A stretch of 64,000 nt of DNA. It comes from an uncultured Armatimonadetes bacterium (GTDB lineage Bacteria; Armatimonadota; UBA5829; DTJY01). The position numbers and the translations under genes are program-made. The stretch spans positions 4,067,248 to 4,131,247 of the forward strand of contig OY970325.1 of NCBI GenBank assembly GCA_963717145.1. Direction: 5' to 3'. This document shows, piece by piece, positions 6,816-58,916 of this stretch. Each line of letters starts with the position of its first letter. Position 1 is the first letter of the stretch. The notes beneath the pieces are model-generated. The model was not told the origin of the DNA. It saw only the letters and a program-made list of their open reading frames with translations, and ran no database searches.

Positions 6816-9584
6816 TCAGTGATCTGGGGCGCGACTAGCGAGCCAAGCGGAAACCGATAGCATTATCCCTGCTCCCCGGGGAGTAGTTGCTCCGATTGGC
6901 GCAGCGGGGAGCGTACCGGTCTTCCTGAAGGTAACTCGCACCGCGCAGGACCCTGTAACTATAGATCCACCCAGCGGGCCCTGCGGGTCGGCTGGCCAAC
7001 TGCTCGTCGAGTACTCGCTGTAGTAGGCGCTCGAATACCAGTCCTTACACCACTCCCACACGTTGCCGGCCATGTCCTGGCAGCCGTACGGGCTGGCGCC
7101 CGAAGGGTTGACATAGCTTCCAACGGGCTTGGCGGCCGATGAGTTCATGACGTTGCACCTGTTGCCATCCCAGATGTCGCCCCACGGGTACACGTTTGGA
7201 TGCTCCGCCGGGCTAGTCGCCCAGCGGGCAGCCTTCTCCCACTGAGCCTCTGACGGCAAATGGCCGCCAGCGTAGTTGCAGAACGCTTCTGCTTCGAAGT
7301 AGCTCACCCCACCCACTGGGAGAAGTCCATTCGCGCTTGGGTTCCAGTTGGTTGGCTGCGTGATATGCCCTTGGTCACGCCAGAGTCGCCCCTCCTCAGA
7401 CCAGTATTCGTTGTTCGCGTATCCATCTGCGTCCACGAATGCTTTGAACTCGGCGTTGGTCACCTCATACTTTCCTATCCAGTAACCTGAGAGACCAACG
7501 CGGTGCTGTGGCAACTCATCGGGGTAGCTGTTTCCCTCGCTCCCGCTGTTCCCCATTAGGAACGATCCGGCTGGAACGTAGACCATTTCCCCAGGATAAT
7601 CGTCGGTCTGTCGCACCAATCGAAGCGTATTACCGCCGATGCTCATGCATGAACTGACGCCCGTCGCTTCCAGGTAGTCACCGACGACGGGTGAGAGCAC
7701 GGTGTTGCGCGTCAGAACCGTGACCGGCTCGGGGCTGCCATCGGAGATCACAAAGAAGCCGGCTCCGTAAGTCTGGACGCGACCCCAGGTCGTCACGAGC
7801 AATCCTATGTTGTTGAGTCCCCTCCCGCCGGTCACGCCGCACTGGCCGGCCCCGCTGGATGCCAGGCAGTGCCAATCCCCACCGCCCAGCGAGAGAAGGT
7901 TGATCCCCAATGGCTTTACCGATCCATAGCCGATAGGCTCGACCCAGGTCGCTTCGACGTATCGCTCTCCGTTCAGATCAGTGCGCATGGTGCCCGTGAG
8001 GTTGACGCACGTCTTGCGGGCAGCCGTAAAGCCGGAGGCAAGCACCTTAAGTCCTGCGCTTCTGTCGGCAGACTCCACATAGAAGCCGTCCGTTAGAACT
8101 GCCGTGATGATGCCACCCAGACACGTAACGGAGTCTGAGTTGGTCCGCAGTCTTGCAGCCGCGACCGAATCGGCTCGCGTACAGGTGAACGATAACTGGA
8201 ACTCCTGGCCCGCCTGCAGCGGAGGGTCATTCTTCTGCCATGGGAGCATCATGACCATATCGTCCGCGAAGTCATAGTCGCGTGCATTGCTGCCGGGTAA
8301 GGCAAGAGCGTTTGTCACTCGGAATGGCAACCAGGCGATCACCGGGTTCTCTAGCCGGGGGATAGAAGTGTTCATCTTCACGGAGAGAGTGAAACGATAC
8401 TCCTCTGGGTTCTCTGTGTGTTCATAAGTGAGTGTCTGGTCGTATAGGGCGGACTGGCAGCTGTCAAGGCGGCAGTCGTAGCCAGGATCGCCGTACAGGA
8501 CGAACTTGTCCCGATCGTACGTGATGTCCTCATCATACCCGGGCGTTTCTCGTTCGCGGTGGAATGCCAGAGCCTGGTTTCCCAGGAAGAAAGCCTCCGA
8601 CCACGTGAACCTGCCGGCCAGCGGAAAGAAATAGCTCTGTACCATGCCGCTTATCAGCCCATAGGTGTTAGTCACGATGTAGCCGCTATACTGGACCGCC
8701 CCGCCAGAATGAATCCAGCCCAGAGCGAGGCAGTTGTCTCGTTGCCCACCAAGGTCGTCCACAAGGCCCAGTAGGCAGTTCCCGCGACCGAAGTACAGCT
8801 TCGGATTCGTGGAGTTGACGTCATGTCTAGTGAGCGCGATGTCTTCGCCGTAGAGCTGTCCATGATCGCTCTTGAAGTACCCCTCACCGTCCGAATTCGG
8901 GTAGTGTAGTTGCCAGTCTAGTGGGCTAGCGTGTCCGCTCGTTATCACAATGTCCACCGGTGACGTATTGGAGTTGAGAGCATCCACGAGTGCTTGTGTG
9001 TCGTCCGCCGGTCCAGCCGGCGGGTGGCCGGCGTCGTACTTTGCGACAATTCCGCACGAGGTATCCCGAACCCACATGACGTCGCTGGCCGACTCCGAGT
9101 GGTACGTCCCAAGCTTCAGGTAGGTCTCGAGAAGGTCACCACCGGTCTTCAGCAAGCCCCGGCGCACGGTTAGCGGCTGTGCTTGGGCCATTCTCAGGGC
9201 ATCTGCCGCCGTGTAACCCGTCACGATGCCCCAGATGCAGTCGCCGTATGGGTCAGCGTCGAGAGCCCAACACAACTGATGAACAGTCTCCACGTAGACG
9301 CCGCTTAGCTCTGTTGGCTGTGCGACGAAGGCGATGTGGCGCGGCATTATGCGCGACAACCTGCTGCGCACGGTATCTGGGAAAGCTGCGCCCGTGTAGG
9401 TTACGACAAGAGCTGAGTGCTTTGCAGCCAGCGCGTCAACCACGCCGCGCCAAGCGGCGTCGCCGTAAGTGCTCTGCGAGACGCATACAGCATAGGGCTG
9501 CGGGTAGTGTTCATCCGCCAGCACATGCACGGTAGTGGCAAGCACTCCAATCACTGCGAGCATAACATACACCTGTCTCATCAT
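6816..9584 (-). CDS. secreted multidomain protein: N-terminal caspase-like (C25 gingipain-like) domain plus C-terminal FGE-sulfatase (SUMF1) domain
   Basis: Signal peptide; ITSGHASPLDW and RGNCLLG resemble the His/Cys dyad of clan CD peptidases; C-terminal 300 aa carry the FGE-sulfatase signature (YPDELPQHRV...AGNVWEWCKDWY). Confidence 0.6.
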   Translation of the reverse strand: MMRQVYVMLAVIGVLATTVHVLADEHYPQPYAVCVSQSTYGDAAWRGVVDALAAKHSALVVTYTGAAFPDTVRSRLSRIMPRHIAFVAQPTELSGVYVETVHQLCWALDADPYGDCIWGIVTGYTAADALRMAQAQPLTVRRGLLKTGGDLLETYLKLGTYHSESASDVMWVRDTSCGIVAKYDAGHPPAGPADDTQALVDALNSNTSPVDIVITSGHASPLDWQLHYPNSDGEGYFKSDHGQLYGEDIALTRHDVNSTNPKLYFGRGNCLLGLVDDLGGQRDNCLALGWIHSGGAVQYSGYIVTNTYGLISGMVQSYFFPLAGRFTWSEAFFLGNQALAFHRERETPGYDEDITYDRDKFVLYGDPGYDCRLDSCQSALYDQTLTYEHTENPEEYRFTLSVKMNTSIPRLENPVIAWLPFRVTNALALPGSNARDYDFADDMVMMLPWQKNDPPLQAGQEFQLSFTCTRADSVAAARLRTNSDSVTCLGGIITAVLTDGFYVESADRSAGLKVLASGFTAARKTCVNLTGTMRTDLNGERYVEATWVEPIGYGSVKPLGINLLSLGGGDWHCLASSGAGQCGVTGGRGLNNIGLLVTTWGRVQTYGAGFFVISDGSPEPVTVLTRNTVLSPVVGDYLEATGVSSCMSIGGNTLRLVRQTDDYPGEMVYVPAGSFLMGNSGSEGNSYPDELPQHRVGLSGYWIGKYEVTNAEFKAFVDADGYANNEYWSEEGRLWRDQGHITQPTNWNPSANGLLPVGGVSYFEAEAFCNYAGGHLPSEAQWEKAARWATSPAEHPNVYPWGDIWDGNRCNVMNSSAAKPVGSYVNPSGASPYGCQDMAGNVWEWCKDWYSSAYYSEYSTSSWPADPQGPLGGSIVTGSCAVRVTFRKTGTLPAAPIGATTPRGAGIMLSVSAWLASRAPDH

Positions 9585-12606: not shown

Positions 12607-12729
12607 GCAACCGCATGTAGTGGCCGCGCCTCCGTGCCGGCCTTCGACGTCCCATGGCCGGCACGGAGGCACGGCCACTACATGCGGTTCCGATTGTCCG
12701 AACATGGCCGGCACGGAGGCGCGGCCACT
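12607..12729. repeat. hairpin with duplicated arm between clpB start and 3' end of upstream gene
   Basis: catgtagtggccgcgcctccgtgccggcc / ggccggcacggaggcacggccactacatg inverted repeat plus a second copy of the right arm at 12701..12729. Confidence 0.6.
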
Positions 12730-12880
12730 ACGACGGCAAAGAATATGTACCCAATCGGGCCAAGCGGTCACCATGTCTATGCCTGCGCCATCATACTACT
12801 TGATGGCATTGTTGTCAAGTAGTATGACGCACGAGCACCCCAAATGGTTCCCATCTTGGCGTCCCTTGGCGACTTGGCGG

Positions 12881-14122: not shown

Positions 14123-14176
14123 CCTCCAGAATGGTTGATGGTATATGGTTCATGGTTGATGCGGGATCTCACATTG

Positions 14177-14283
14177 GTGTTTCGGGATTTGAGTGACTCT
14201 GGGAACGGAAATCCCGAAATGCGTCTCTCGTCCCGTTTCGGGATTTCCGTTCCCAGAGTCACTCAAATCCCGAAACACCAACC
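14177..14283. repeat. 107-bp near-perfect palindrome (about 45-bp arms)
   Basis: ggtgtttcgggatttgagtgactctgggaacggaaatcccgaaa ... tttcgggatttccgttcccagagtcactcaaatcccgaaacacc. Confidence 0.8.
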
Positions 14284-21916: not shown

Positions 21917-22013
21917 AACACAGATAACACAGATGGTTACGGATTAGATGATCCATTCCCTTTCTGTGCTTTCCGTGTTCCATCTGTTCCATCTGTGTTC
22001 CAGAGGGGTTAGC

Positions 22014-22949
22014 ATGTTTGATGTAATCGGAATCGGATACACCGCGACGGACTACCTGGGGATCGTGCCCAGGTACGCTGAGATCGATACCAAGATGGAG
22101 ATGTCGCCGTTCATCAAGCAGGGCGGCGGACCGGCGGCGACCGCAATGGTGGCCGTTTCGCGGCTCGGCGGACGGGCGTCGTACGTCGGCAAGGTTGGCG
22201 ACGACGACTTCGGCCGGTTCATGCTCGATCAACTCGCTGTGGAGGGCGTCGATACGTCTCAGGTGACCGTCGCGCCGGGGGCGGAATCCCAGTTCGCCTT
22301 CATCGTCGTGGACGGCGAAACCGGAAAGCGGACGATCTACTGGACGCGCTCAGGAGTGCCGTCGCTCAGGCCCGACGAACTCGACCGGGAGCACGTCCTT
22401 TCGGCGAAGGTGCTGCTCGTCGACGGGCACGACATTGAGGCGGCGATCGAGGCCGCGGGATGGGCGAATGAGGCGGGAATCCCTGTGGTCTACGATGCCG
22501 GTACCGCCCGCGAGAACACCGACGTGCTGTTCGAGCGGACCAACTATCTGGCGGCCTCGAAGCTGTTCGCGACCTCGTTCACGGGGGAGGATGATCCCGA
22601 GAAAGCGGCGAGTGCGATGTTTGGCGGGCGACGGAAGCTCTCGGCGGTGACCCTGGGCAGCGAGGGCTGCTTCTACGCGACCTCGGAGGGCACGGCGTAT
22701 CAGCCGGCGTTCCAGGTCGATACGGTCGATACCACCGGCGCGGGCGATGTCTTCCACGGTGCGATGGCGTTTGCGGTGTTCAAGGATTGGCCGATTCCCG
22801 AGATGGTCGAGTTCGCGAGTGCGGTGGCGGCGATGAAATGCACCGCCCTCGGCGGCCGGACCGCGATCCCCTCCCTGCCCCAGGCGCTCGGATTCTTGCG
22901 TGAGAGATCACCCAACGGGTTCTGGAGCAGCCAGGCGCATTCGAGTTGA
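22014..22949 (+). CDS. PfkB-family carbohydrate kinase (ribokinase/KdgK-like)
   Basis: GAGD motif (DTTGAGDVFHGAM) and kinase N-terminus; last 3 codons plus stop are supplied by the MITE. Confidence 0.8.
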   Translation: MFDVIGIGYTATDYLGIVPRYAEIDTKMEMSPFIKQGGGPAATAMVAVSRLGGRASYVGKVGDDDFGRFMLDQLAVEGVDTSQVTVAPGAESQFAFIVVDGETGKRTIYWTRSGVPSLRPDELDREHVLSAKVLLVDGHDIEAAIEAAGWANEAGIPVVYDAGTARENTDVLFERTNYLAASKLFATSFTGEDDPEKAASAMFGGRRKLSAVTLGSEGCFYATSEGTAYQPAFQVDTVDTTGAGDVFHGAMAFAVFKDWPIPEMVEFASAVAAMKCTALGGRTAIPSLPQALGFLRERSPNGFWSSQAHSS

Positions 22950-23106
22950 GTGGGTGGCGACCGTCTCTCGATATGGTTTCCAGAGAAACCGACTCGAGAC
23001 TAGACGGGTTTGGGCTTGGGAAGCTTGGCAAGCTACCCAACCGTTCTCCTCGAGTAGCCACTCTGGTGGCATAACGAGAGGCTGACTCACTCTGCGGAGA
23101 TGCACC
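22934..23106. mobile_element. MITE copy 1 (non-autonomous derivative of the ISKra4-like IS)
   Basis: Termini GGCGCATTCGAGTTGAGTGGG ... CCCACTCTGCGGAGATGCACC match the IS inverted repeats at 41482 and 42930; ~70-nt core identical to copy 2. Confidence 0.65.
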
Positions 23107-23148
23107 CGGAGCAGCCTCTAAGATACGCCACTCCCCGCGGGTTTCTGG

Positions 23149-23154
23149 TATAAT
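23149..23154 (+). promoter_or_regulatory. putative extended -10 element (TGgTATAAT) for the M16 peptidase gene
   Basis: ctggTATAATgcg lies 30 bp upstream of the GGAGG SD and ATG at 23184. Confidence 0.35.
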
Positions 23155-23183: not shown

Positions 23184-25958
23184 ATGAGAGCCGGAAATAC
23201 TCGTCCATTCTTTTTGATGCTGGCGCTGATCGTGCTGGCAGCAACAATCGCGCCGGTACTCGGCCAGCAGGCGGAGGTCCGGGAGACCGTCCTGCCGAAC
23301 GGCCTGAAGGTGCTCACGAAGGAAGTCCATGCCGTCCCGGTCGTCAGCTTCCAGGTCTGGTACAAGGTCGGCTCTCGGAATGAGCAGCTCGGAAAGACCG
23401 GACTGTCTCACCTGCTGGAACACATGCAGTTCAAAGGCACGAAGTCGCTCGGGAAGGGCGAGATCGACCGCCTGATCCAGAAGAATGGCGGCATCAGCAA
23501 CGCGACCACCTGGAAGGACCGGACCCACTACTACGAGACGTTCTCCAGTGACAGGCTCGAGCTGGCGATGCGCATCGAATCCGACCGCATGGTGAACAGC
23601 CGGATGGACGCCAAGGAACTCGAGTCGGAGAAGGTCGTAGTTCGCTCGGAACTCGAAGGCGGCGAGAACAGCCCGGATTCGCTGATCTACTATGAGTTGT
23701 ATGCCACCGCGTTCAAGGCACATCCCTACCAGTGGCCGACGATCGGCTGGGTCGCGGACCTGGGCTCGATCACCCGGGACGACCTGTACAGCTACTACAA
23801 GACTTACTATCAGCCGAACAATGCGACGGTCGTGATCGTCGGCGACTTCCAGGCCGAGAAGGCGCTGGCACTCGTGAACAAGTACTTCGGCAAGATCAAG
23901 AAGGGCGACGATCCACCCAAGGTCACAGCTAAGGAGCCGGTCCAGTTCGGTGGACGGCGCGCGATCGTCAGCAGGGCGGGCAACGCGTCCCGAGTGATGA
24001 TGGGCTTCAAGACCCCGGCGGTCGGCGATCCGGACAACTATCCGCTCGATGTGCTGGAGATCGTGCTGAGCAGTGGGACGAGCAGCCGCCTGTATAAGGC
24101 GCTCGTGGACAAGCAACTTGCGACCGAAGCCTGGGCGAGCGCGACCGTCGGCAAGGACCCCGATCTATTCCTCCTCGGAGGAACCGCCCGCGACGGCGTG
24201 AAGATCGAGGATGTCGAGGCCGCGCTCCTGGCCGAGGTCGAGAAGATCAAGACCGAGGGCATCACGGACCAGGAACTTCAGAAGGCGCTCAACCAACTCG
24301 AGGCGTCGTTTGTCTACGCCAATGACAGCGTCTCCGCGCAGGCCCGGCAACTCGGAGAGTTCGAGACCATGTACTCCTGGCGGTACATCGTGGAATACCT
24401 GTCGAACGCGCAGAAGGTGAGCAGGGAAGACGTAGGTCGTGTGGCCCGGAAGTACTTCACCGAGATGGGCCGGACCGTCGTGACGTTCGTTCCTGAGGAG
24501 TCAGGAGTCAGGAGTCAGAAGTCAGAAGTCGGCAGGGAGCAGATGGCACTGCCCTTTGAGAGGTTGGCAGCTTACAAACCGGATGTGGAGACACGGAGAG
24601 TGGGAGAACGGGAGAGTGGGAGAGTGGGAGACAAACCCATACTATCCGCCGAGGAATCCGAAATCCGCAGTCCGACATCCGCAATTCAGCCGAAGCGGGT
24701 GGTGCTCGATAACGGTATGGTCGTCATCATCTACCCGAACCGGAGCAATGCGACGATCGCCGTGACCGGAAGCCTGGGCGCCGGTTCGATGCTCGATCCG
24801 ACGGGCAAGGCCGGAGTCGCGCCGGTGACCGCCGGACTGCTCATGAAGGGCACGAAAACCCGCACCGCCGATCAGCTCGCGGCCGAGAGGGACTTTCTCG
24901 CCATCCGCATGGGCACGGGCGCGGACACCGAGTCAGCCTCGTTCAGCACGTACTCGCTCTCGAAGCACTTCGACAAATCGCTCGAACTGCTGTCCGACGT
25001 GCTGCGCAACCCGACATTCCCAGCGGACGAACTCGAGAAGCTGAGGATGAGACGCCTCTCCGCCATCAAGCAGGAGCAGGACGACCCGCAATCGCTCGCG
25101 TTCCGGAAGTTCTACGGCACGGTCTACCCGAAGGGGCATCCGTACCATCAGAATTCGATCGAAGAGGAAGCGGCGAACACCTCCGCGATCACAAGGGATG
25201 ACATCACCGACTTCTACGGCAAGTACTATGGCCCGCAGACCGCGATCATCGTGGTCGTCGGCGATGTCGATGAGCAGACGGCGCTGGCAAAGATCAAGCA
25301 GTATTTCGGCGACTGGAAGCCGACCGGTCCCGCCGTAGTCCCGAAGCAAGTTCGGGACCTGATCCCGGACACGCCGCTTCAGGCGTCCATCGTGAAGGAG
25401 ATCATCCAGGTGCCGGACAAGTCGCAGGCCGACGTGGTCCTCGGCTATGCGAGCACTCTGAAGCGGTCCGATCCGGACTTCTATGTCGCGACGATTATGA
25501 ACTACATCCTCGGCGGCGGCGGAGCGCTCGGCAGCCGGTTCGGGAACGTCATCCGCGACGAGATGGGCCTCGTCTACACCGTCTACAGCGGCTTCGACTC
25601 GACGCTCGGCGCCGGGCCGTGGTACGCTTACCTCGGCACGAACCCGGAGAACATAGACAAGGCAGTCACTACGCTGCTCGACCAGATGAAGCTCATGCGC
25701 GACAAGGGTGCGACGAAGGTGGAGGTCCAGGAGGCGCTGGACTACATCACGGGCTCGTTCGCGGCGCGCCGACTCGAGACGAACAGCGCGATCGCGGATA
25801 CCCTGCACGCCGCTGAGTTCTTCGGCCTGGGGATCGATTACATTCAGAAATACCAGAGCCTCTATCGGGCGGTGACACTCGATCAGGTGAACGCCGCCGC
25901 AAGGAAGTACCTGCACACGGATCAGTACACGATCGTGGAAGCAGGAACGATCAAGTAG
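23184..25958 (+). CDS. tandem M16 (pitrilysin/insulinase) family zinc peptidase
   Basis: HLLEHMQFKGT inverted zinc motif; two M16 modules joined by a low-complexity linker encoded by tandem repeats. Confidence 0.85.
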   Translation: MRAGNTRPFFLMLALIVLAATIAPVLGQQAEVRETVLPNGLKVLTKEVHAVPVVSFQVWYKVGSRNEQLGKTGLSHLLEHMQFKGTKSLGKGEIDRLIQKNGGISNATTWKDRTHYYETFSSDRLELAMRIESDRMVNSRMDAKELESEKVVVRSELEGGENSPDSLIYYELYATAFKAHPYQWPTIGWVADLGSITRDDLYSYYKTYYQPNNATVVIVGDFQAEKALALVNKYFGKIKKGDDPPKVTAKEPVQFGGRRAIVSRAGNASRVMMGFKTPAVGDPDNYPLDVLEIVLSSGTSSRLYKALVDKQLATEAWASATVGKDPDLFLLGGTARDGVKIEDVEAALLAEVEKIKTEGITDQELQKALNQLEASFVYANDSVSAQARQLGEFETMYSWRYIVEYLSNAQKVSREDVGRVARKYFTEMGRTVVTFVPEESGVRSQKSEVGREQMALPFERLAAYKPDVETRRVGERESGRVGDKPILSAEESEIRSPTSAIQPKRVVLDNGMVVIIYPNRSNATIAVTGSLGAGSMLDPTGKAGVAPVTAGLLMKGTKTRTADQLAAERDFLAIRMGTGADTESASFSTYSLSKHFDKSLELLSDVLRNPTFPADELEKLRMRRLSAIKQEQDDPQSLAFRKFYGTVYPKGHPYHQNSIEEEAANTSAITRDDITDFYGKYYGPQTAIIVVVGDVDEQTALAKIKQYFGDWKPTGPAVVPKQVRDLIPDTPLQASIVKEIIQVPDKSQADVVLGYASTLKRSDPDFYVATIMNYILGGGGALGSRFGNVIRDEMGLVYTVYSGFDSTLGAGPWYAYLGTNPENIDKAVTTLLDQMKLMRDKGATKVEVQEALDYITGSFAARRLETNSAIADTLHAAEFFGLGIDYIQKYQSLYRAVTLDQVNAAARKYLHTDQYTIVEAGTIK

Positions 25959-26147
25959 GGAATGGTTTATGGTTTGTGGTTGATGGCTGATGGGGAACCG
26001 GTTCCCATTCCCCATTCCCCATTGACCATTAACCATCAGCCATCAACCATTCCCCGTCAACCATTCCCCCGGGTTTGGCGTATAACAGGCGGGGGGTAAA
26101 CTGCGCGCGGAGGCTCCAACGATGCCGCCGTGCTTTGGAGGTGTGTC

Positions 26148-28033: not shown

Positions 28034-28341
28034 GGTTGTAGGGGCGTGCCTTGTGCCGCCCGCGACACCGAACCGGGCGGCACAAGGCACGCCCCTACAA
28101 CCGGTTCATCTGGAGACGCCTCCTACAACAGTGATCCCCGGCACATGATCCGCTCTGCCTCCGCCAAGTTGGTCCCGGGTGTTGATGCCGAGCACCTCGT
28201 CCGGCCCGCACGATACCGATGACGCGCGCATCCCCTGCGATTATAACTCCTGCACTGCCCAGCGACAAGCGCCGACAGTTTCGCGCACCGACATGCCGGG
28301 TATGAGAACAAGGGTATGGCGCAGATGACTGCGCCGACAGG

Positions 28342-30735: not shown

Positions 30736-30824
30736 GCCATCAGTATAGGATGTGGTCGGGACGAGGTCAAGCGGAACCTTCGGAGTGCGGTGGCTTGACA
30801 CCGCCTTGACGGTTTGACGTGGCC

Positions 30825-32363
30825 CTAGAGCGGTGTCAAGCCACCGCACTCCGAAGCGAGAAAGTCCGAGTCGAGGGTGTAGACGCCTGTGACGGAGACG
30901 ATGCTGTCGAGCTGTACCGCGCCGGCCCAGCGGACGGGGACGCCGGTCTCACCATCCGAGAGCCGGAAGCCGCCTGGGAGGATCTCGGTCACACGGCCCC
31001 ACGTCTTCGTCCGGAGGCCGATCATCCTGTTCACTCTCGTGAGCGTCGAGCCGAGCGGCTCAGGGATGTGCCTCCCCGCGGCATGGAGTGTGCTTGCTGA
31101 GGCCGAAAGGATCTTCGCGCCGCCTGGATTCGTGCTCACAGTACCGGTCACGCTCGCCAGGAGATCGCCGACGTTGTATCCGTTCAGCCCCTGGACCGCG
31201 ATCGCCGCCGAGCGGTCGGGCGATTGCAGATAGGTCGTGACGCCGTCGCTGCAGCTAACGACCAGCCGGTTGATCCTGGCCGCGGTTCCATCCGGCAGGA
31301 GCTTCGCGATCCCGATCCGATTGAGGTTGTACGGCGAATCGAGCGGATAGCATCCGACCCCGGCGCACGGCGAATCGAACCGCAGCCGGAACTCATCGCG
31401 GTCGGGCATAAGGAAACGCGGATCGGCGGAGAAGTTGCCCCAGGCCGGCGCCGCCGGTTTGATCATTCCACCGAGATCGCCGCCCACGTTCCCATACAGG
31501 TCGCAGTGGCTGTATGTCAGTGCGGAGGACGTACTCCCGCCGAAGAGACCTCCTCCGACCGGCGCGGAGTTGAACGCTATGATGCAGTAGTTCAGGATCA
31601 TCGGCGAGCCGTAGTAGTCATAGCCGCCGCCGCCACTGACCTCGGCGCTGTTGTAGGCGATCGTGCAGTTCTCGAAATCAGGGCCGGCATGATAGGGTCC
31701 GAATACGCCGCCGCCGCTCCCTGTGGCATGATTGCGGACGATGAGGCAGTTTCGAACGACGGGATAGGAGTGGTACTCGACGTATATGCCCCCGCCGCTC
31801 ACGGCCTTGTTGTGGATCATCTCGCAGTTGATGATGTCGCCGTAGGAGTACTTGCCCATGTAGATTCCGCCGCCCCGATTGGTCGCGCGGCAGTTCTCGA
31901 ACCGGCAGTTGATGATGGTCGCGGTGGTCGTGATCTGGCAGCGAATGCCCCCGCCGTCGTCCGCCTTGCCGTTCCTGATGGTGATACCTTCGATGGTCAC
32001 GGAGACTTGTGTTGGGACGTCGATACCTCGTCCCGCACCGCCCGGATCGATGATCGTCGGGAACGCCCCGCCCAGACGCTGGCTCAGCGAGGTCTCGTAG
32101 CCGAGGAACCCGCCGTACAGCTTGCTGTACTGGGTCATGGTGACCGATTCCCGGTAGGTCCCGGCTGCGATCCAGTAATCCGAGCCGGTGCCTGTCGCGC
32201 TGATGGCCTGCCCGATTCCTGTGTACGCGGTCGCCCACGAGGTCCCATTATGTATGGGACCAGGCGCATCGGCATCGACGTAGACGACCGTCGCCCCATG
32301 AGCGGCTGAGATGCCCAACAGGCAGAGGAGAAGTGCTATGGTTATCCGTTTGGACATGGACAT
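30825..32363 (-). CDS. secreted right-handed parallel beta-helix repeat protein
   Basis: Signal peptide; repeated GGGI/NC...N rungs typical of the pectate-lyase fold. Confidence 0.6.
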   Translation of the reverse strand: MSMSKRITIALLLCLLGISAAHGATVVYVDADAPGPIHNGTSWATAYTGIGQAISATGTGSDYWIAAGTYRESVTMTQYSKLYGGFLGYETSLSQRLGGAFPTIIDPGGAGRGIDVPTQVSVTIEGITIRNGKADDGGGIRCQITTTATIINCRFENCRATNRGGGIYMGKYSYGDIINCEMIHNKAVSGGGIYVEYHSYPVVRNCLIVRNHATGSGGGVFGPYHAGPDFENCTIAYNSAEVSGGGGYDYYGSPMILNYCIIAFNSAPVGGGLFGGSTSSALTYSHCDLYGNVGGDLGGMIKPAAPAWGNFSADPRFLMPDRDEFRLRFDSPCAGVGCYPLDSPYNLNRIGIAKLLPDGTAARINRLVVSCSDGVTTYLQSPDRSAAIAVQGLNGYNVGDLLASVTGTVSTNPGGAKILSASASTLHAAGRHIPEPLGSTLTRVNRMIGLRTKTWGRVTEILPGGFRLSDGETGVPVRWAGAVQLDSIVSVTGVYTLDSDFLASECGGLTPL

Positions 32364-34851: not shown

Positions 34852-35075
34852 CGGTGCATTCGAGTTGAGTGGGCGGCGATCCGACCGTCTCTCGTTATGG
34901 TTTCGGGGCCTCCAGAGACGCGGAGGCCGTCCGCAGACGGACGCAGAGAGAAACCTACTCGAGACTAGACGGGGCTGGGGACTGGGGAGTCCGGCAGACC
35001 ACCCAACCGTTCTCCTCGAGTAGCCACTCTGGTGGCATAACGAGAGGCTGCACCCACTCTGCGGAAATGCACCCC
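34852..35075. mobile_element. MITE copy 2 (ISKra4-like derived)
   Basis: GGTGCATTCGAGTTGAGTGGG matches 20/21 to the reverse complement of the IS right end; right terminus CCCACTCTGCGGAAATGCACC. Confidence 0.65.
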
Positions 35076-35122
35076 CTACGTCCATTGACGCATCGAGGCC
35101 CTTCGCGTACAATGCCGCTGGA

Positions 35123-36581
35123 GGACCCACCGATGCGTTTTCTATTCTTCGCACTGCTTGCTCTCATCACCATGATCCCCGCGAGCCTGTATGCCGAGGA
35201 CCTGATCGCCGGGAATCCGCCGTTCCGACGGCTCTTCCTCGATGCGATGGTGACCGAGGAGTCTCAGGGCCTCACGCGCGTATTCCACTCCGCCGAGAAG
35301 CACCCCGGCAATCCCGTCATGCGTACCACCGAGGCGTGGGAAGGCTGGGGGCCGTATCTCTACGGCACAGTGCTGCGGGACGAGGGGCGGCTCAAGATGT
35401 GGTACTCCTGCATCGGCTCAGACAGCGGGTATACGTGCTACGCCGAGTCCACGGATGGCATCACCTGGACCAAGCCGAAACTCGGGATCGTCGACTTCAA
35501 GGGATCGACCGCGAACAACATCGTCGGCACAATGGGCCTCCCGAGCGTGATGAAGCTCGGAGACAAGCGATGGGCGATGTACTCCTGGGGCGGCGACTCG
35601 GGTGCGCAGGTCATGTTTTCCGAAGACGGTCTGCGCTGGACTCAGGGCAAGACGAAGCTCTTCCCGACCTCCGACGTCGTCAACTTCTTCTACGACCCGT
35701 ATCGGGAGCGCCATGTCTCGACCTACAAGGTCGCGAACCGCCGGCACAGGGCGACCGGCCTCGCGGTCTCCAGCGATGGATTGGAGTGGAGCAAGCCGGT
35801 CGAGGGGCCGGTCTTCGGCGCGGATGACCTCGACCCGGACGCCTCCCAGGTCTACGGCATGCCGGTGTTCCCGTACCAGGGCATGTATGTCGGCCTGCCC
35901 TGGATCTATCACGCGCGATGGATGAAGTATGGCGACTATGACTCGCCGAAGAAGATGTACGAGGCACAGGAAGGGAGTCCGTGCACCGTAGATGTCCAGA
36001 TGACGTGGGGCTGGAACCTCATCCAGTGGAATCGAACGCCCGACCGGAAGCCGTTCATCGCCCTCGGGCCGGACGGAAGCTGGGACGACGGCATGATCTA
36101 CACCGCCCGCGCGCCGGTCGTCATGGGCGACAAGCTCGGGTTCTACTACGGCGGATTCGATCAGGTCCACGATGACTACAAGGATGTCCACGGCGCGATC
36201 GGGCTGGCGACCCTCCGGCTCGATGGATTCTGCTCCATGCGCGCCGGGGTCAAGGAGGGATGGCTGATCAGCCGGCGGGAGGTCTTCCGTACCCCCAGAG
36301 TCACGATCAACGCGAAGACCGCCCCGACCGGCTTCGTCGCGGCCGAGCTGCTCGATCGGAACAACAACGTCATCCCCGGCTTTTCACGAGCCGACTGCAT
36401 CCCATTCACGGGCGACTCGGTCCGAGGCACGATCGAATGGAAGACAGAATCGTTCCCGAAGAAGCTGATCGACGCCGACAAGAAGGTCCGCTTCTTCGTC
36501 AAGAACGCCGATCTCTATTCCTACCTCCCGGCGGACATCGACATGGCGAAGGACGACGGTCGAATCTGGATGGACAAGTGA
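35123..36581 (+). CDS. secreted beta-propeller glycoside-hydrolase-like protein (GH43/GH32/GH130-like)
   Basis: Signal peptide MRFLFFALLALITMIPASLYA; TACAAT -10 and GGAGGA SD upstream. Confidence 0.5.
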
Positions 36582-41399: not shown

Positions 41400-41481
41400 G
41401 CTCAGCCTCCCTCGTCCGGGTCCGGGCGCTCGGACTATATGGACATAATAGCCCACATTGCATCGATGCACAAGGGTTCAT

Positions 41482-42930
41482 GCGATGCGGGGTGGAATTC
41501 CTCAGAGTGGGTAGAGCACGGCTCAGGCGGCACGTGCTGCGTGCTCGATCCGAGCCAGTTCGCCGCTTAGGAGGGCAGTTCTCACCGCGAGCACTGCATC
41601 TGCGCCGTCCTTCGTCCATCGCATCCCGGCTTGCTTTAACCTCTGGCCTACTATCACCTTGCACGCCGCTTCCACCGGACCGCTGCCTATCATCATCCCC
41701 TTGGCCCTGTATGCCGGGTAGTTCATGTACTTGCGGTACTTTCTGAAGTAGCCTGTCTCGATCCGAAGCGCTTCCCTCTCAGAATCGTTTCGTGCTCTGC
41801 GCCGCTTCATGGCTCTAAGCAGACTCCCCGGCCCCTTCTCTTTAAGCTTCCGGCAGTGTTCGTTTGCCCAGCGCTTCCCTTTGGGATTCCCCTCTCCGTA
41901 GAGTGTCCGCGCCAAGCCGTATATGTGCTCACAGGCATGCCAGTAGTCGATGATCTTGATGCTCTCCGGCAGATGATTCCTGACCTCTCTCCATATCCAG
42001 TCTGCGCCGTCGGCGATCACTATACGCTCTTTTGCCCCGTCATAGCCGGCTTGCAGTGCTCTGGTGTATACCCGTCTCCCGAACTCGTCGCTCGTCTCTT
42101 GCGCCGCTATGTAGCGCGAGTTGGTGACGGTATCCGTGTCTTTGCCTGCAGCCGGAACGCCTTCGTATACCACCATGGTCTTGATGTCATGCCACTGGCC
42201 ATCGGTGTGCGCTTTGGCCGCGTCTATGCCAATGTAGAGCCTCTGTGGCGTCGCCTCGCAGGAGACCTCTTCACCTGTGTCTACCACAGAGATGATCGCT
42301 TCCTGCTCCTCTCGGCGGAGGCATTCCCCAACATCCCGGACTATCTCTTCTTCGCTGCTCTCTTCGATCGCAATACCCGTGGTTCGCTCGATCAGCCTTG
42401 CGGCTGCTTCATATGGAAGCGCGGCGCAGATCGAGGCGGTGAGTTCCTTCACTCTGGCGGTCCATACTCTCTCGGACAGCCCCTGCTCGCGGTCCCATGG
42501 AATGTAGCCCCGCCTGCAATGGTCGCAACGGTAGTATGACCTCTCGACCTCTATGTCTCCGTGCAAAGTCCGAATGAAGCGTTTCCGGTATCCCTTGAAC
42601 CTGGCCAGTCTGCCGCATTCGCATTCTATCCCAACACCCTTGTAGGTGGGCTTTCCGCTCATCTTGGCGGCAACCTCACTCATCATTGCGCCGGCAATCT
42701 GACGCGCCAGGATCTGAATACGCTCCTCGGCTGACCCTAAGTCCGTGCAATCGATGTAGCTGCGCGCAAAGTCGCGAGCGGCCTGAAGGAGGGAGTCTGT
42801 GTGCAAAAGTGTAAGCATTCTCTGGGAGTCTCCTTTCGGAATGTTTGTCCTTCAACAAACCGTTACCGACTATTACAGGAGACTCCTTCCTTACTTGCTA
42901 CCCACTCAACGCGAATGCACCCTGCGATGC
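41482..42930. mobile_element. ISKra4-like (ISNCY-family) insertion sequence, ~1.45 kb, imperfect terminal inverted repeats
   Basis: Left end gcgatgcggggtggaattcctcagagtgggtag aligns with the reverse complement of the right end ctacccactcaacgcgaatgcaccctgcgatgc; boundaries +/-10 bp. Confidence 0.6.
41523..42818 (-). CDS. ISKra4/UPF0236-family transposase
   Basis: DGADWIW...IDYWHACEHI motifs; CxxC pairs; 431 aa. Confidence 0.65.
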   Translation of the reverse strand: MLTLLHTDSLLQAARDFARSYIDCTDLGSAEERIQILARQIAGAMMSEVAAKMSGKPTYKGVGIECECGRLARFKGYRKRFIRTLHGDIEVERSYYRCDHCRRGYIPWDREQGLSERVWTARVKELTASICAALPYEAAARLIERTTGIAIEESSEEEIVRDVGECLRREEQEAIISVVDTGEEVSCEATPQRLYIGIDAAKAHTDGQWHDIKTMVVYEGVPAAGKDTDTVTNSRYIAAQETSDEFGRRVYTRALQAGYDGAKERIVIADGADWIWREVRNHLPESIKIIDYWHACEHIYGLARTLYGEGNPKGKRWANEHCRKLKEKGPGSLLRAMKRRRARNDSEREALRIETGYFRKYRKYMNYPAYRAKGMMIGSGPVEAACKVIVGQRLKQAGMRWTKDGADAVLAVRTALLSGELARIEHAARAA

Positions 42931-43114
42931 GTTTGCGGCGGAAGGGGCTGACAAAGCACATTCTATGGTACAATGTCATCGAGAATGGCCTGGTTCCCGA
43001 ACTGTCACCGTGAGGTGCGCGTGTCCGCCGTTGGCGGAATAGGGGCCGGGCCGAACCTTTCCGGGGGGCCGGCTTCAGGCATGAGGCCGGCCTTATTCAT
43101 TTTCTACCCGGTTT

Positions 43115-43195: not shown

Positions 43196-44212
43196 ATGGA
43201 CAAGCTGAGAATCGCCATGATCGGAGCGGGTGACTGCGCATCGGCCGCGCACATGCCGTCGTTCGCCGGGAACCCGAAGGTGGAGGTCGTCGCAATCGCG
43301 GACCCGGATGCCCAAGCCGCGCAGTCCCTCGCCGAGAGATTCTCTATCGACAGGGCGGTGGGTGACTACCACGAGTTGCTCCAGGACGGATCGATCTCGG
43401 CCGTTGACATCTGCGCGCCGCACGACCTGCATCACCCGATCACGATGGACGCCCTGAACGCCGGGAAGCATGTCATCCTCGACAAGCCGATCGCCATGAA
43501 CCTCGAGGAGGCCGACGCCATGATCTCGGCGGCTCGGGATGCCGGGCTGAAGCTGCTCGTCGTGCTGAACCAGCGGTTCCTCCCGGCGCATCGGAAGATC
43601 AGGGAGATGATCGAGGGCGGCCACATGGGGAAGCCGTTCCTCATGAACGCGATCCTCGCCGGCGACGTGCTCGCGCGCATGAACGATCCGCACGATTGGA
43701 AGGGCGCATCGGACCGATCGGGCGGCGCGTTCTTCGACACCGGCACTCATATCGTCGACTTGATGCACTACTGGTTCGGGCCGCCGACCGCCGTGAGCGC
43801 GACCCTCAGGCGGTTGGTCGTGACCCCGGACAACAAGGGCGACGACAACGCGGCCGTGACGTTCGAATATGACGGTATGATCGCGAACGTGATCGTCTCG
43901 TACACGATGAACAACGAGCCGTGGAGCGAAAAGAAGTTCATCTACGGCACGGGCGGCGACATCGCGATGATCAGCGAGGCCGTCGTGCCGATGTTCTACG
44001 TCCACGACAACGTGCCGGAGATGGTCGATGTCGAGCATCGAGACGACTGGTGGAGCTGGTCGATCGACCTCGCGCTCGGGCATTTCGTGGACTGCATACT
44101 GGAGGGCGCCGAGCCGCTCGTCACCGCCGAGGACGCCCGCGCCGCCCTGAAGTCGATCCTGGCGGCATATCGGAGCGCCGGAGAAGGACGACGGGAGATG
44201 GTTAATGGCTGA
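43196..44212 (+). CDS. Gfo/Idh/MocA-family NAD(P)-dependent oxidoreductase
   Basis: IAMIGAGDCASAAHMP Rossmann N-terminus; EKP-like core. Confidence 0.85.
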   Translation: MDKLRIAMIGAGDCASAAHMPSFAGNPKVEVVAIADPDAQAAQSLAERFSIDRAVGDYHELLQDGSISAVDICAPHDLHHPITMDALNAGKHVILDKPIAMNLEEADAMISAARDAGLKLLVVLNQRFLPAHRKIREMIEGGHMGKPFLMNAILAGDVLARMNDPHDWKGASDRSGGAFFDTGTHIVDLMHYWFGPPTAVSATLRRLVVTPDNKGDDNAAVTFEYDGMIANVIVSYTMNNEPWSEKKFIYGTGGDIAMISEAVVPMFYVHDNVPEMVDVEHRDDWWSWSIDLALGHFVDCILEGAEPLVTAEDARAALKSILAAYRSAGEGRREMVNG

Positions 44213-44276
44213 TGGTTAATGGTTAATGGCAGACGGACCTGCATCCCCCATCAACCATTCCCCATTAACCATCAAC

Positions 44277-45348
44277 TGTCAAGTCCCACCACGTTGTGAA
44301 CGGTAGTTCAGTAAGTCGGTAGGCTCTTTGATAAACAGATCTGGTCTTTGCGCGTACCAGTCGCAGACCTTCTCATAGGGTGTCTTGCCACCGATCGCGC
44401 TGTGCTGTCTCCTTAGATTGTAGATGGTCAGCCACTGGTGGAGTCCATCTATCAACTCCGGATATCCAGGATATCTGTGCATCTTGTACGTGCCCTCCTG
44501 GATCAGTCCGTTCATGCGTTCCACCAGACCGTTGGTCTTTGGTGTATACGGCCGGGTGAGCCTGTGTTCAATACCACAGGCTGAGCATACTTCATCAAAG
44601 AAGTGAGGTCTCTTCGCCGGACTGCCCCAACGGCTCCAATTGGCCAGAGTGAACTCTCTACCGTTGTCTGTCAGGATCTTGTGGATCATGAACGGATAGA
44701 ACCACATGCACAGTCCAAGGAAGCCCACTGCGGATTCCTTGGTTAGGTTGTCGTACACCTGGAGGAAGGCTAGCCTTGTTGCTCTGTCTACCGCAACGAA
44801 GCAATACTTCCTCTTGCCCCCGATCTTGGGCAGGTAGAAACAGTCTATGTGAAGGTATCCAGGCAGATACTCTTTGAACTTGCCTGGACTTTCTCTCTTT
44901 TCTTTTTGGTACTGGGGGAGTCTGCTCACCCCTTTTCTGCTCAGTAAGCGATGTATACTGGCGCGTTCTGCATTCGGCAGAACTGTGACTACTGCACGCA
45001 CCAGTGCATCGAGTGCTAGACCTTTGTCCCGGAGCGAGAGGATGATCTCCTCCTCTTCGGGGCTGAATGCATAATGGATCTTCCTGGGCCGACTGCTGCG
45101 GTCTTGCTGGTCACCCCGGGCCTTCCATTTGCAGACTGTTGCCGGCGATACATGGCAGATATCTGCGAGCTTTCTGCAGCTCTTGGGACTCTGCCTGAAA
45201 AACCGCCGTTGCTTCATATTGCTGGTTGCGTTAGAATGGATCTGCATGCGAGTGGTCTCCTTTTTTGGTTTGGCGATCATCAAAGAGACTACCGCATGCA
45301 CCTCCTTCTTTTCAACCCACGGTGTTCATAATGTCATGAGACTGGACA
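44277..45348. mobile_element. IS481-family insertion sequence with a 6-bp ATCAAC target-site duplication
   Basis: TIRs tgtcaagtcccaccacgttgtgaac / gttcataatgtcatgagactggaca; flanking ATCAAC at 44271..44276 and 45349..45354; inserted into a heptamer-repeat hairpin. Confidence 0.75.
44279..45301 (-). CDS. IS481-family transposase (DDE/rve integrase core)
   Basis: DNGREF ... TRPYTPKTNGLVERMN catalytic region; N-terminal HTH. Confidence 0.85.
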   Translation of the reverse strand: MHAVVSLMIAKPKKETTRMQIHSNATSNMKQRRFFRQSPKSCRKLADICHVSPATVCKWKARGDQQDRSSRPRKIHYAFSPEEEEIILSLRDKGLALDALVRAVVTVLPNAERASIHRLLSRKGVSRLPQYQKEKRESPGKFKEYLPGYLHIDCFYLPKIGGKRKYCFVAVDRATRLAFLQVYDNLTKESAVGFLGLCMWFYPFMIHKILTDNGREFTLANWSRWGSPAKRPHFFDEVCSACGIEHRLTRPYTPKTNGLVERMNGLIQEGTYKMHRYPGYPELIDGLHQWLTIYNLRRQHSAIGGKTPYEKVCDWYAQRPDLFIKEPTDLLNYRSQRGGT

Positions 45349-48822: not shown

Positions 48823-50203
48823 CGCGGTCGGCCTCCTTTTCGGTCGGGCATATTCCGAACGCGTCGCAGATCGTGTCGAGCCGGGTGGAGACATCGTCCC
48901 CCGCGTACTCCTTGATCCGGATCATCGGCTGGTGGCAAATCTTGTTCACGATCGAGCGAGTCGTCTGGTTGACGGCCTCGATCTCCTCCTCGGACAGGTT
49001 CGGCAGCCGGGCGCGGAGTCTCTCCAACTCCGACTGCCTGATCTCCTCGAACTTGTCTCTGAGCGCGGTGATGACCGGCACGGCGTCCAACGTGCGGAAC
49101 CAATCCATGAACTTCTCGACCTCCTCGCGGACGATCACCTCCACCTTCGCGATCTCGGCATCCCGCTCCTCCGCGTCGGCGGCGACCACCGCCTGCAGGT
49201 CGTCGATGTTGTACAGGAAAACGTCGTCCAGTTCACCGACCTCGGGTTCGACATCCCTGGGCACTGCGAGGTCGATGATGAAGACCGGCCGGCCCCGACG
49301 GACCCGCATCGCCTGCGAGACCATATCCCGCGTGACGATCGGCTTCCCGGCGGCGGTCGAGGTGATGACGATGTCCGATCTCTGCATGGCCGACTGTATC
49401 TCATCGAACTTGAGAGGCCTTCCGCCGAACCGCTCGGCGAGATCGACCGCCCGCTCGTATGTCCGATTCGCGACGAGCACGGAGGTCACTCCCGCTGATG
49501 AGAGATGAGTCGCAGTCAGTTCGCCCATCTTTCCCGCGCCAACGATCAGGACCGTGCGGCCTTTGAGCGGGTCGAAGATCGAGCGCGCGAGTTGGACCGC
49601 CGCGTATCCTACGGAGAACGCGCCTCGACCGATCTCAGTCTCGGTGCGGGAGCGCTTCCCGACGGTGATCGCCTGCTGGAATAGCGCATTGAGCACCGGG
49701 CCGGTCGCTCCCGCCTCGGATGCCGCCGCATAAGCCGATTTCACCTGCCCGAGAACCTGCGCCTCCCCGAGGATCATGGAGTCGATCCCCGAAGCGACGC
49801 GAAAGAGGTGCTCGATCGCCTTGTGGCCGGAAAGGGAGTAGAGATGCGGCTCGAACGACTCGCGGGCGAGGCCACTGCGCTCGGCGATGGCCTCGATGAT
49901 GTCGTCGGCTGCCCTCACCCCCGACCCCTCTCCCGGAGGGCGAGGGGAGACTCCACCCTCTACCTTCGGTTGTTCCCCCTCGCCCTCCGGGAGAGGGGTC
50001 GGGGGTGAGGGTCGACTCTGTAAGGTCGTCCAGGCGTAGATCTCGGTCCGATTGCAGGTCGAGAGGACTACGGCCTCCCTCAACCCTTCGTTCCTCAGTA
50101 GAGCATCGAGGAACGCCTTCGGGTCGCTCTCGGGCATGCAGAGTCGCTCGCGGATCTCGACCGGAGCGGTCACGTGGTTCAGGCCTATGACTACCAGATG
50201 CAC
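48815..50203 (-). CDS. hemA: glutamyl-tRNA reductase with a 33-aa in-frame palindromic insertion
   Basis: LSTCNRTEIYA active-site region; NADP-binding domain; inserted low-complexity segment PSPPTPLPEGEGEQPKVEGGVSPRPPGEGSGVR. Confidence 0.9.
   Translation of the reverse strand: MHLVVIGLNHVTAPVEIRERLCMPESDPKAFLDALLRNEGLREAVVLSTCNRTEIYAWTTLQSRPSPPTPLPEGEGEQPKVEGGVSPRPPGEGSGVRAADDIIEAIAERSGLARESFEPHLYSLSGHKAIEHLFRVASGIDSMILGEAQVLGQVKSAYAAASEAGATGPVLNALFQQAITVGKRSRTETEIGRGAFSVGYAAVQLARSIFDPLKGRTVLIVGAGKMGELTATHLSSAGVTSVLVANRTYERAVDLAERFGGRPLKFDEIQSAMQRSDIVITSTAAGKPIVTRDMVSQAMRVRRGRPVFIIDLAVPRDVEPEVGELDDVFLYNIDDLQAVVAADAEERDAEIAKVEVIVREEVEKFMDWFRTLDAVPVITALRDKFEEIRQSELERLRARLPNLSEEEIEAVNQTTRSIVNKICHQPMIRIKEYAGDDVSTRLDTICDAFGICPTEKEADRDV
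49912..50010. repeat. 99-bp perfect palindrome (36-bp arms, 27-nt loop) inside the hemA coding frame
   Basis: ccctcacccccgacccctctcccggagggcgagggg ... cccctcgccctccgggagaggggtcgggggtgaggg; 99 = 33 codons. Confidence 0.9.
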
Positions 50204-50818
50204 TTGTGAGCTGTCTCCAGTGCCTCGTCATGCCGCCCCTCCGCCAGAAGGCGCAGCGCATTCGAGTCGAGGATTCGGTTGTATGCGCTCGCTCGCTCGT
50301 CCATCGTGGCGTACTTCGCCTTGATCTCGCTTCTGAGAGAGCCGAGCAGGTCGGCGAGCATTCCGTACTCCGGGCCGTAGCGCGCCTCTATCTCCTCGCG
50401 GATCCGGCGAGCCATCGCCGGGCTCTTCCCGGAGGTCGAGACGCTGATGACGAGGTCGCCGCGCATGACCGACGCCGGCACGAAGAAACTGCACAGCTCG
50501 GGGTCGTCGACAACGTTGACAAGTATGCGCCGATCCCGGGCGTCGGAGGATACCTGCTTGTTTGTTCCCCGATCGTCGGTCGCGCCAATCACCAGGAACG
50601 CGCCGTCCAGATGCTCGGGGCGGTATTCCGAATCGACGTGCTCGATCCGGCCTTTGGATGCCCACTCGGCGAGCTTGGAGGTGATCTCAGGCGATATGAC
50701 GCGGACGGAGGCGCCGAATTCGAGGAGCGATTCGACCTTCCGCTCCGCGACGGGTCTACCCGCCGATAACCGCGCAGGTCTGACCGCTCAGACTGAGGTT
50801 GATTGGATAATGGGACAT
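50191..50818 (-). pseudogene. sirC: precorrin-2 dehydrogenase / sirohydrochlorin ferrochelatase (SirC/CysG N-domain-like), frameshifted near 50757..50766
   Basis: MSHYPINLSLSGQTCAVIGG in one frame then GRPVAERKVESLLEFGASVRV... in another; shift at a short G/C run; may be a sequencing indel. Confidence 0.6.
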
Positions 50819-50886
50819 GGTTGATGGTCGATGGCTGATGGTTGATGGGGATTCGGGACGTTAACCATCAGCCATCAACCATTCCC

Positions 50887-56931: not shown

Positions 56932-56985
56932 TGGGGAATGGCTGATGGGGGAACGGTTCATGGTTGATGGCTGACGGGGACCGGA

Positions 56986-57094
56986 ACCCGCTAGTCCTGA
57001 GTGCGCCTCTGGGCGTGTATCGAAGGACGGCCTACGGAGTGCCACAAGGCCGTCCTTCGATACACGCCCAGAGGCGCACTCAGGACTAGCGGGT
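56986..57094. repeat. 109-bp near-perfect palindrome downstream of hemB
   Basis: ccgctagtcctgagtgcgcctctgggcgtgtatcgaaggacggcc ... ggccgtccttcgatacacgcccagaggcgcactcaggactagcgg. Confidence 0.8.
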
Positions 57095-58823: not shown

Positions 58824-58916
58824 ATTCGTGCAACAAGTCGGGGAAAGGTCAAAAAGAGTTGGAGGCAGGGGGCAATCATTGAGGCACACGTGATCGATGA
58901 TGCGTTGGCAGTGCAC

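Follow-up and report, generated by a model that had tools for sequence, protein, structure and literature searches.

Miniature elements with ISKra4-group termini and a shared orientation upstream of genes in an Armatimonadota-like genome

Two short repeats in the genome of an uncultured Armatimonadetes bacterium are very probably miniature inverted-repeat elements (MITEs), non-autonomous units mobilised in trans by a DDE transposase of the ISKra4 group and inserted in an oriented, promoter-directed manner. Both lie on the plus strand of the window (the whole 64,000-nt stretch of DNA that was analysed), copy 1 at 22933–23107 and copy 2 at 34852–35074. Their termini are homologous to those of a full-length insertion sequence (IS) in the same window; target duplications flank copies of the family, an empty site exists for copy 1, further copies occur in other genomes, and promoters show a one-sided association with the insertions. 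The interior of 130–180 nt, by comparison, is a tightly self-folding passenger that is not derived from the IS, and any function of it is putative. A first-pass annotation of the window had proposed that the two repeats are MITEs bearing the ends of a resident ISKra4-like IS. That proposal is borne out here by the matching ends, by a transposase score above the ISKra4 family cut-off, by 9-bp duplications, by the empty site and by a third copy.

Terminal repeats, target duplications and an empty site

The resident IS is a full-length ISKra4-group element of 1433 bp on the minus strand (41490–42922), and not 41482–42930 as first annotated. The end upstream of the transposase gene is termed IRL and the end downstream of it IRR; IRL lies at 42922 (GGGTGCATTCGCGTTGAGTGGG) and IRR at 41490 (GGGTGGAATTCCTCAGAGTGGG), and the left and right ends of the miniature elements are named accordingly, as IRL-type and IRR-type. 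The two inverted repeats of the IS are asymmetric, being identical to each other at 18/26 positions. An intact gene for a transposase of 431 aa (41523–42818, minus strand) matches the NCBIfam model for ISKra4 family transposases (NF033572) at 274.5 bits against a cut-off of 205, over model positions 17–422 of 422. The match of the same protein to ISLre2 (98.9 bits) falls under the 200-bit cut-off, and a match to ISH6 is also under its cut-off; the Pfam match is to UPF0236 (PF06782). Perfect 9-bp target duplications (TGCGATGCG) adjoin the element on its IRR side (41481–41489) and its IRL side (42923–42931). Inverted repeats of approximately 22–26 bp ending in ...CACCC, together with the perfect 9-bp duplication, fit published values for the ISKra4 group, for which inverted repeats of 18–39 bp, a terminal C and direct repeats of 8–9 bp are reported in the main text of Guerillot 2014 (PMC3942029), and 9-bp direct repeats with ends such as ...ATGCACCC (ISAcce1) and ...GCACCC (ISCasp2) in its supplementary table. 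Because the transposase is intact and the duplication perfect, the IS is probably still active.

Relatives of this transposase number in the hundreds, mostly on contigs close in length to the IS itself (1.4–1.9 kb). Those on long contigs belong to elements of 1433–1435 bp with the same asymmetry of the inverted repeats. Duplications of 9 bp flank three of these IS copies (ATTTATTCA at L010, TGGCATTTG at L011 and CCCTCTTGA at L012), and two others (L008 and L013) have flanks without a target duplication.

The miniature elements share the ends of this IS. Copy 1 is 175 nt long, with an IRL-type end at 22933–22954 (AGGCGCATTCGAGTTGAGTGGG, its tip mutated) and an IRR-type end at 23086–23107. Copy 2, of 223 nt, has the same ends and core and an additional 48 nt of internal hairpins (a difference of 48 nt by the corrected ends, where 46 bp had been given). 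The first-pass annotation placed both elements correctly; the true termini, GGGTG...CACCC, extend one base further on each side. The left-terminal 21-mer (GGTGCATTCGAGTTGAGTGGG) is found at 22934 with one mismatch, at 34853 exactly, and on the minus strand at 42901–42921, again with a single mismatch. The right-terminal 21-mer is found at 23086, at 35053 and on the minus strand at 41491–41511, with 0–3 mismatches. Either 21-mer thus occurs at three places in the window, where 100 dinucleotide-preserving shuffles lead one to expect 0 matches. The left ends of the MITEs agree with IRL of the IS at 19–20/22 positions and the right ends with IRR at 17–19/22, each end being closest to its cognate. 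Since the termini match the IS ends on the minus strand, copies 1 and 2 are opposite in orientation to the IS.

The tips of the elements differ in detail. At its left tip, copy 1 reads AGGCGC instead of GGGTGC, and given these two substitutions it may no longer be mobile; the first base of copy 2 is C, not G. On the right, the ends of copies 1 and 2 and of two elements from other genomes (L004 and L001, described below) read GGGTGCATTTCC..., while IRR reads GGGTGGAATT... in all five IS lineages sampled. The right tip of the MITEs is therefore a hybrid, with its first 9 nt IRL-like (GGGTGCATT) and its inner half IRR-like (TCCNNAGAGTGGG). An exact parent IS with the MITE-type right tip was not present among the five IS lineages sampled; the parent is perhaps a variant with symmetric tips, like ISAcce1.

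Copy 1 is bounded by perfect 9-bp duplications (GGAGCAGCC), which are absent from the first-pass annotation. The left one (22924–22932) lies within the last codons of a pfkB kinase gene (21948–22949) and the right one at 23108–23116, and they have the same length as the duplication of the IS. At copy 2 no intact target duplication is found in the flanks, where inspection by eye gave just a 6/9 match in a shifted register. A small deletion in the flank of copy 2 would explain the absent duplication, the initial C and the offset of this copy from its promoter, discussed below.

The insertion of copy 1 has altered the end of the kinase gene. The stop codon of the gene, its final four codons and two bases of the codon before those come from the element (...FWSS-QAHSS*), where three codons and the stop had been supposed. 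The residues QAHSS and the stop are thus transposon-derived, except for the first base of the Q codon, which is native. When copy 1 and one duplication are removed in silico, the C-terminus changes from ...NGFWSSQAHSS* to ...NGFWSSL*. The closest kinase homologues stop 2–4 residues after the conserved FW (FWDTA*, FWKRL*, FWQAHM*), and the excised kinase ends in the same manner, at FW plus three residues. A homologue with 89% identity (P0002) lies on contig L005 in the same synteny of ROK, kinase and M16 peptidase genes. There the spacer between kinase and peptidase is 56 bp and carries no element, and it represents an empty site for copy 1. In a global alignment, the window sequence with copy 1 excised aligns with L005 through the junction, with conservation of the FW codons, TCTGGTATAATG, the ribosome-binding site and the start codon. 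The C-terminus annotated for the pfkB kinase should be corrected accordingly.

Another homologue, P0004, ends in ...FWQAHM, which was considered as a possible counterpart of the MITE-derived QAHSS. This candidate was rejected: P0004 encodes these residues with different codons (CAGGCCCACATG), at the point where its contig breaks off, and the likeness is a coincidence. On contig L007, which carries homologue P0003, the downstream context differs from that of the window.

Interior, copies in other genomes and the question of RNA function

Between their ends, the two window copies share a core of 50 nt (23035–23084 in copy 1 and 35001–35050 in copy 2, both on the plus strand), which is identical in the two and contains an imperfect hairpin, CCTCGAGTAGCCACTCTGGTGGCATAACGAGAGG. 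A repeat search within the window recovers the wider shared interior as one family (D6, at 23006–23084 and 34972–35050). The core had previously been described as some 70 nt of perfect conservation; copies 1 and 2 agree perfectly over at most 50 nt, and all three copies over 49 nt, within a common stretch of 74 nt that is 96% identical. The interior has no similarity to the IS outside the ends of approximately 22 bp. Neither window copy has coding capacity: the only open reading frames that cross them are read-through frames, and four MITE reading frames compared with a collection of 5.8 billion proteins yielded nothing that scored. Bacterial MITEs are conventionally elements under about 300–500 bp that lack coding capacity. 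The window elements represent the type of MITE in which the interior did not arise by deletion from the parent IS.

The same core is present outside the window. A metagenome scan with a 22-nt word from the core recovered one locus, on contig L004 (Ga0315273), with the same core and right end and with 49 nt of the core identical. This third copy, from an unrelated metagenome, lies upstream of a trpE-like gene, and another mobile element breaks up its left part. In the window and the metagenome collection scanned, the core is found at three unrelated loci, two in the window and one on L004; it had no match elsewhere in the sequences compared, and scans of viral contigs for the element gave no match. 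The count of more than two copies, the presence of a duplication and the computed alignment of the termini all agree with the MITE reading of the first-pass annotation. A scan for the terminal repeats among species-representative genomes recovered a single Armatimonadota MAG with three matches. One of these, L001, is a MITE of 238 bp with the same termini and a perfect 9-bp duplication (CATTGGCCC), whose interior is unrelated to the window core. Another, L003, is an internally deleted IS of 246 bp that retains IS positions 1–25, 127–157, 501–521 and 1344–1431, and the last, L002, is an IS end fragment. The combination of GGGTGCATT, a terminus of 22 bp and a 9-bp duplication provides a signature by which the family can be sought in Armatimonadota genomes.

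These copies bear on two other accounts of the window elements. It is hardly credible that the likeness to the IS ends reflects chance or low complexity and that the repeats are an unrelated dispersed family: the shared termini are short (about 22 bp), and nothing else speaks in favour, but neither terminus was matched in any of the 100 shuffles, both ends stand in the correct inverted arrangement, the duplication has the same 9-bp length as that of the IS, and other genomes contain unrelated MITEs and IS copies with these termini. The suggestion that each element is a full IS decayed on the spot by internal deletion is also very improbable, if slightly less so. Deletion derivatives and end fragments of the IS do exist in the related MAG, as L003 and L002 illustrate. 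However, the interior of the window elements is unlike the IS beyond the ends, and one non-IS core is found at three unrelated loci, including one from another sample, which requires that the miniature unit itself was transposed. Decay in place is accordingly rejected for the window copies.

Alternatively, the elements may be, or may in addition have become, functional host modules with a core under selection, serving as stabilisers of a 3′ UTR, insulators against read-through, small RNAs or protein-binding palindromes. The first-pass annotation had raised an RNA-level role of the core, as a promoter or a structured 5′ UTR, and had described a G–C versus G–T covariation in terminal pairing. 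The predicted folds are indeed very stable (copy 1, −76.2 kcal/mol, z = −3.7; copy 2, −110.3 kcal/mol, z = −5.3), and 49 consecutive nucleotides are unchanged in all three copies, which come from at least two sources. Copy 1 overlaps the stop codon of the kinase and copy 2 begins 3 nt past the stop of ZupT, and so both would be carried on upstream mRNAs; if the elements are transcribed at all, it is as the 3′ ends of the kinase and ZupT messages. They are not 5′ UTRs, because the promoters of the downstream genes lie beyond them. Strong folding, moreover, is a generic property of MITEs and not evidence of a specific RNA, since the unrelated core of L001 folds better still (z = −6.5). The supposed covariation proved to be one C/T difference that affects one partner only (alignment columns 21/203); in no pair do both partners change. 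A fold of the three-copy alignment contains compensatory changes at 0 of 47 predicted pairs—with the low power that three copies afford—and its covariation term is a penalty, +3.76. Rfam gave no match on the elements at the gathering threshold or at E ≤ 1, and neither element contains a sigma-70-type promoter or an intrinsic-terminator consensus.

The invariance of the 49-nt run may reflect selection or youth. Next to it are 30 nt of TTGGGG-like sequence, a slippage-prone type of repeat, with about 30% variability, and three recent copies cannot separate constraint on the run from recent spread or from slippage-prone mutation nearby. A specific RNA-level function of the elements is thus not supported, and a selected host module is improbable as the explanation of the family, although it is a better candidate than decay in place or chance likeness. 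The reading that we prefer is that of mobile MITEs carrying a passenger interior.

Position and orientation relative to promoters

In the window, both miniature elements lie in the same orientation upstream of genes, as first annotated. The genes in question had been described as secreted hydrolases, but only the one that follows copy 1 (23184–25958) is a verified hydrolase, of the M16 peptidase family; the gene that follows copy 2 (35124–36581) encodes a secreted protein with no match to a family or solved structure. An extended −10 box, TGgTATAAT (23146–23154, plus strand), stands before the peptidase gene 38 nt past the end of copy 1, and is kept in the MITE-free contig L005. A sigma-70-type promoter of the secreted protein gene, TTGACG-17-TACAAT (35085–35113, plus strand), starts 10 nt after copy 2. 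A weaker promoter-like site, TTGTGC-17-TATTAT (8/12; 41445–41473, minus strand), starts 16 nt past the IRR end of the IS, and downstream of it is a minus-strand membrane-protein gene with its start at 41399.

Eleven independent insertions were scored for this arrangement, comprising three in the window (the two MITEs and the IS) and L001, L003, L004, L008 and L010–L013. Across these insertions, the next real gene past the IRR-type end points in the same direction, with L013 ambiguous. A relaxed scan (first hexamer at 3/6) identified promoter-like sites scoring at least 9/12 within 25 nt of the IRR-type end in 6/11 insertions, at offsets of 17, 10, 16, 18, 18 and 6 nt, mostly 16–18 nt. At a threshold of at least 8/12 the count is 8/11, with the addition of the window IS (offset 16) and L011. 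The same scan directed outward from the IRL-type end recovered 1/10 and 2/10 at the two thresholds, respectively. Under a strict scan (at least 4/6 in each hexamer and at least 9/12 overall), five insertions have a site within 20 nt of the IRR-type end. The corresponding background, for a site 0–20 nt downstream, is 0.6% of all positions and 1.4% of positions 40–150 nt upstream of long open reading frames; the probability of at least 5 of 10 is about 1e-7 under the strict criteria and 1.6e-3 at a generous background of 10%. Copy 2 sits 10 nt from its −35 region, and not at the more common 16–18 nt.

This pattern has a precedent. Insertion 13–17 bp ahead of the −35 box at sigma-A promoters has been shown for TnGBS, for ISLre2 and for some of the ISKra4 group; dissymmetry of the inverted repeats fixes the orientation such that IRr adjoins the promoter, and contact with the RNA polymerase initiation complex has been proposed by the authors of that work (Guerillot 2014; PMC3942029). 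ISKra4 and ISLre2 elements have also been described as lying preferentially, and unusually, 50–250 bp from the nearest gene (PMC9208149). The arrangement noted in the window, with one orientation and a position just ahead of genes, is attributed to the target specificity already known for ISKra4, TnGBS and ISLre2 transposases. Targeting is here taken from the literature; the positions analysed in this study would fit both targeting and selection after insertion.

A mechanism for the present elements can be proposed along these lines. The mobilising enzyme would be the prokaryotic Mutator-like (p-MULT 4) transposase of the IS located 6.4 kb away, or a close variant of it. This transposase would recognise the terminal inverted repeats of about 22 bp and move the element, probably with a circular intermediate of the kind formed by related families. 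Integration would then proceed with a 9-bp staggered cut, and would be directed to a position some 16–18 bp upstream of the −35 region of a sigma-A promoter, as in relatives, presumably through contact with RNA polymerase or its sigma factor. The asymmetric ends would fix the orientation, with the IRR-type end facing the promoter. Promoter-directed insertion and asymmetric ends would together explain why the window copies, the IS and the copies elsewhere all stand in one orientation immediately upstream of genes.

The hybrid right end invites a more specific, and unlikely, extension of this mechanism. All five MITE insertions place this end next to the promoter; an end whose tip is IRL-like still faces the promoter in every one of them, and this would locate the determinant of orientation in positions 10–22 of the inverted repeat. 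The elements could then amount to a natural dissection of orientation in Mutator-like bacterial transposases, with the determinant in those inner positions and not in the cleaved tip. Beyond this, the 49-nt hairpin core might be a selected cis-acting module, for instance a site bound by a host factor or the transposase, or a barrier that insulates the targeted promoter against read-through. We regard these proposals as speculative. The published idea that the asymmetry of the inverted repeats sets orientation does fit the present elements. Furthermore, since they mark a position just upstream of promoters, the elements may serve, incidentally, to flag promoters in a phylum that has received little study.

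Comparison with known systems

MITEs are a well-known kind of element, and targeting upstream of promoters is not new biology. The additions made here are modest: a member of the ISKra4 group with asymmetric inverted repeats and the strict orientation formerly described for ISLre2 and TnGBS, and MITEs that inherit both the position and the orientation of the IS. In the literature searched, we found no description of MITEs of the ISKra4, ISLre2 or TnGBS groups, which is not proof of their absence. Two intergenic repeats in this genome are thereby explained, and oriented targeting upstream of sigma-A promoters is extended to non-autonomous derivatives and to another phylum, in a manner that does not overturn current understanding.

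The closest comparison is with the ISKra4 group itself (ISKra4, ISAcce1, ISCasp2), with which the present lineage shares the transposase family, an IS of approximately 1.4 kb, the ...ATGCACCC end, the 9-bp duplication and insertion at a fixed distance upstream of sigma-A-type promoters. However, the 13 promoter-targeting members of that group reported in PMC3942029 have inverted repeats that are 83–100% complementary and insert in both orientations, whereas in the present lineage the repeats agree at only 18/26 positions and the IRR-type end is next to the promoter in all insertions examined, which is the behaviour of ISLre2 and TnGBS. Non-autonomous derivatives are not described in that paper, and the present host is Armatimonadota-like, of a phylum outside its list. 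To ISLre2 and TnGBS, the likeness lies in oriented insertion 15–17 bp upstream of the −35 region with IRr at the promoter, in duplications of 8–9 bp, and in the sub-threshold ISLre2 match of the window transposase. The differences are that those elements belong to another transposase family and are full ISs or conjugative elements of 10–50 kb in Firmicutes, not MITEs of 175–223 nt.

Bacterial MITEs such as the Correia elements of Neisseria, RUP, ERIC and Nezha are mobilised by the transposase of a cognate IS. Like these, the present elements are short, non-coding and intergenic, with terminal inverted repeats, strong self-folding and, at copy 1, a target duplication. They differ in their ISKra4-group termini, 9-bp duplication and oriented targeting upstream of promoters, and in an interior that does not come from the parent IS; unlike Correia elements, they are without an internal promoter or terminator consensus. 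Pack-MULEs and MULE-derived MITEs of eukaryotes are likewise non-autonomous members of the Mutator superfamily with 9-bp duplications and a preference for promoters and the 5′ ends of genes, an analogy drawn in PMC3942029. The analogy is bounded by the eukaryotic host and promoter machinery of those elements, and by the gene fragments that Pack-MULEs carry.

The transposase family and the setting of the insertion sequence

The kinase (pfkB) gene that overlaps MITE copy 1 has a record of 100% identity in the protein collection, located on a 5.37-Mb contig. The exact transposase of the ISKra4-group insertion sequence (IS; gene at 41523-42818) was not found in that collection, where its best match is 91% identical, and its relatives lie mostly on contigs of 1.4-1.9 kb, approximately the length of the IS. 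Together, these matches suggest that the transposase family is multi-copy in many assemblies, with contigs breaking at its copies.

Outward from the IRL end of the IS, at a distance of 65 nt, lies a DUF3800-IX RNA motif (42987-43056, plus strand; Rfam, 58 bits vs a gathering score of 36.8). The gene downstream of this motif encodes a GFO/IDH/MocA oxidoreductase (43196-44212) and is not a DUF3800 gene; the IS is placed between the motif–oxidoreductase unit and a divergent membrane-protein gene.

Repeats, hairpins, and heptamer arrays

Perfect 45-nt inverted repeats, each holding small hairpins of its own, occur at 55807-55851 and 57581-57625, with 1729 nt between them. The interval holds a hemB-like gene (55951-56931) and no transposase. 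Rather than a transposon, the pair resembles a short REP-like repeat present twice in opposite orientations. Long perfect or near-perfect hairpins, with arms of 26-48 nt and 97-100% complementarity, are found at 56986-57094, 14174-14281, 49912-50011, 28034-28102, 30778-30856, and 12609-12731, an unusually high number for 64 kb.

The degenerate heptamer GATGGTT/AACCATC forms arrays that build long imperfect hairpins at gene ends in the window (25958-26068, 44190-44280, 50800-50896, 55857-55901, 56901-56988, and 14129-14173), one of them immediately 3' of the M16 peptidase stop codon. Arrays of the same kind (300-350 and 590-625 of locus L001) flank the MITE in another Armatimonadota MAG. These arrays may represent a lineage-typical terminator or intergenic repeat.

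Within the M16 peptidase gene itself is a short tandem repeat, GGAGA(G/C)NGGGAGAGTGGGAGA (24587-24631). At 58570-58640, 58766-58836, and 468-499, a repeated unit combines a ribosome-binding site and an ATG with a short, conserved beginning of a coding sequence (…CTGCAAGAATCGTGCCA…); these units may represent small peptide genes that are paralogous and arranged in tandem.

Interruption of the third MITE copy

The third MITE copy, on the minus strand of metagenome contig L004 (~7878-7994), is interrupted by another mobile element at ...AGAATC|TAGACGG. The interrupting element encodes a transposase with the C-terminus ...RKIARTLWAIYTKKQPYRPERVLAQG*, which we take to resemble the IS110 family; if so, this would be an IS that took the structured interior of the MITE as its target.
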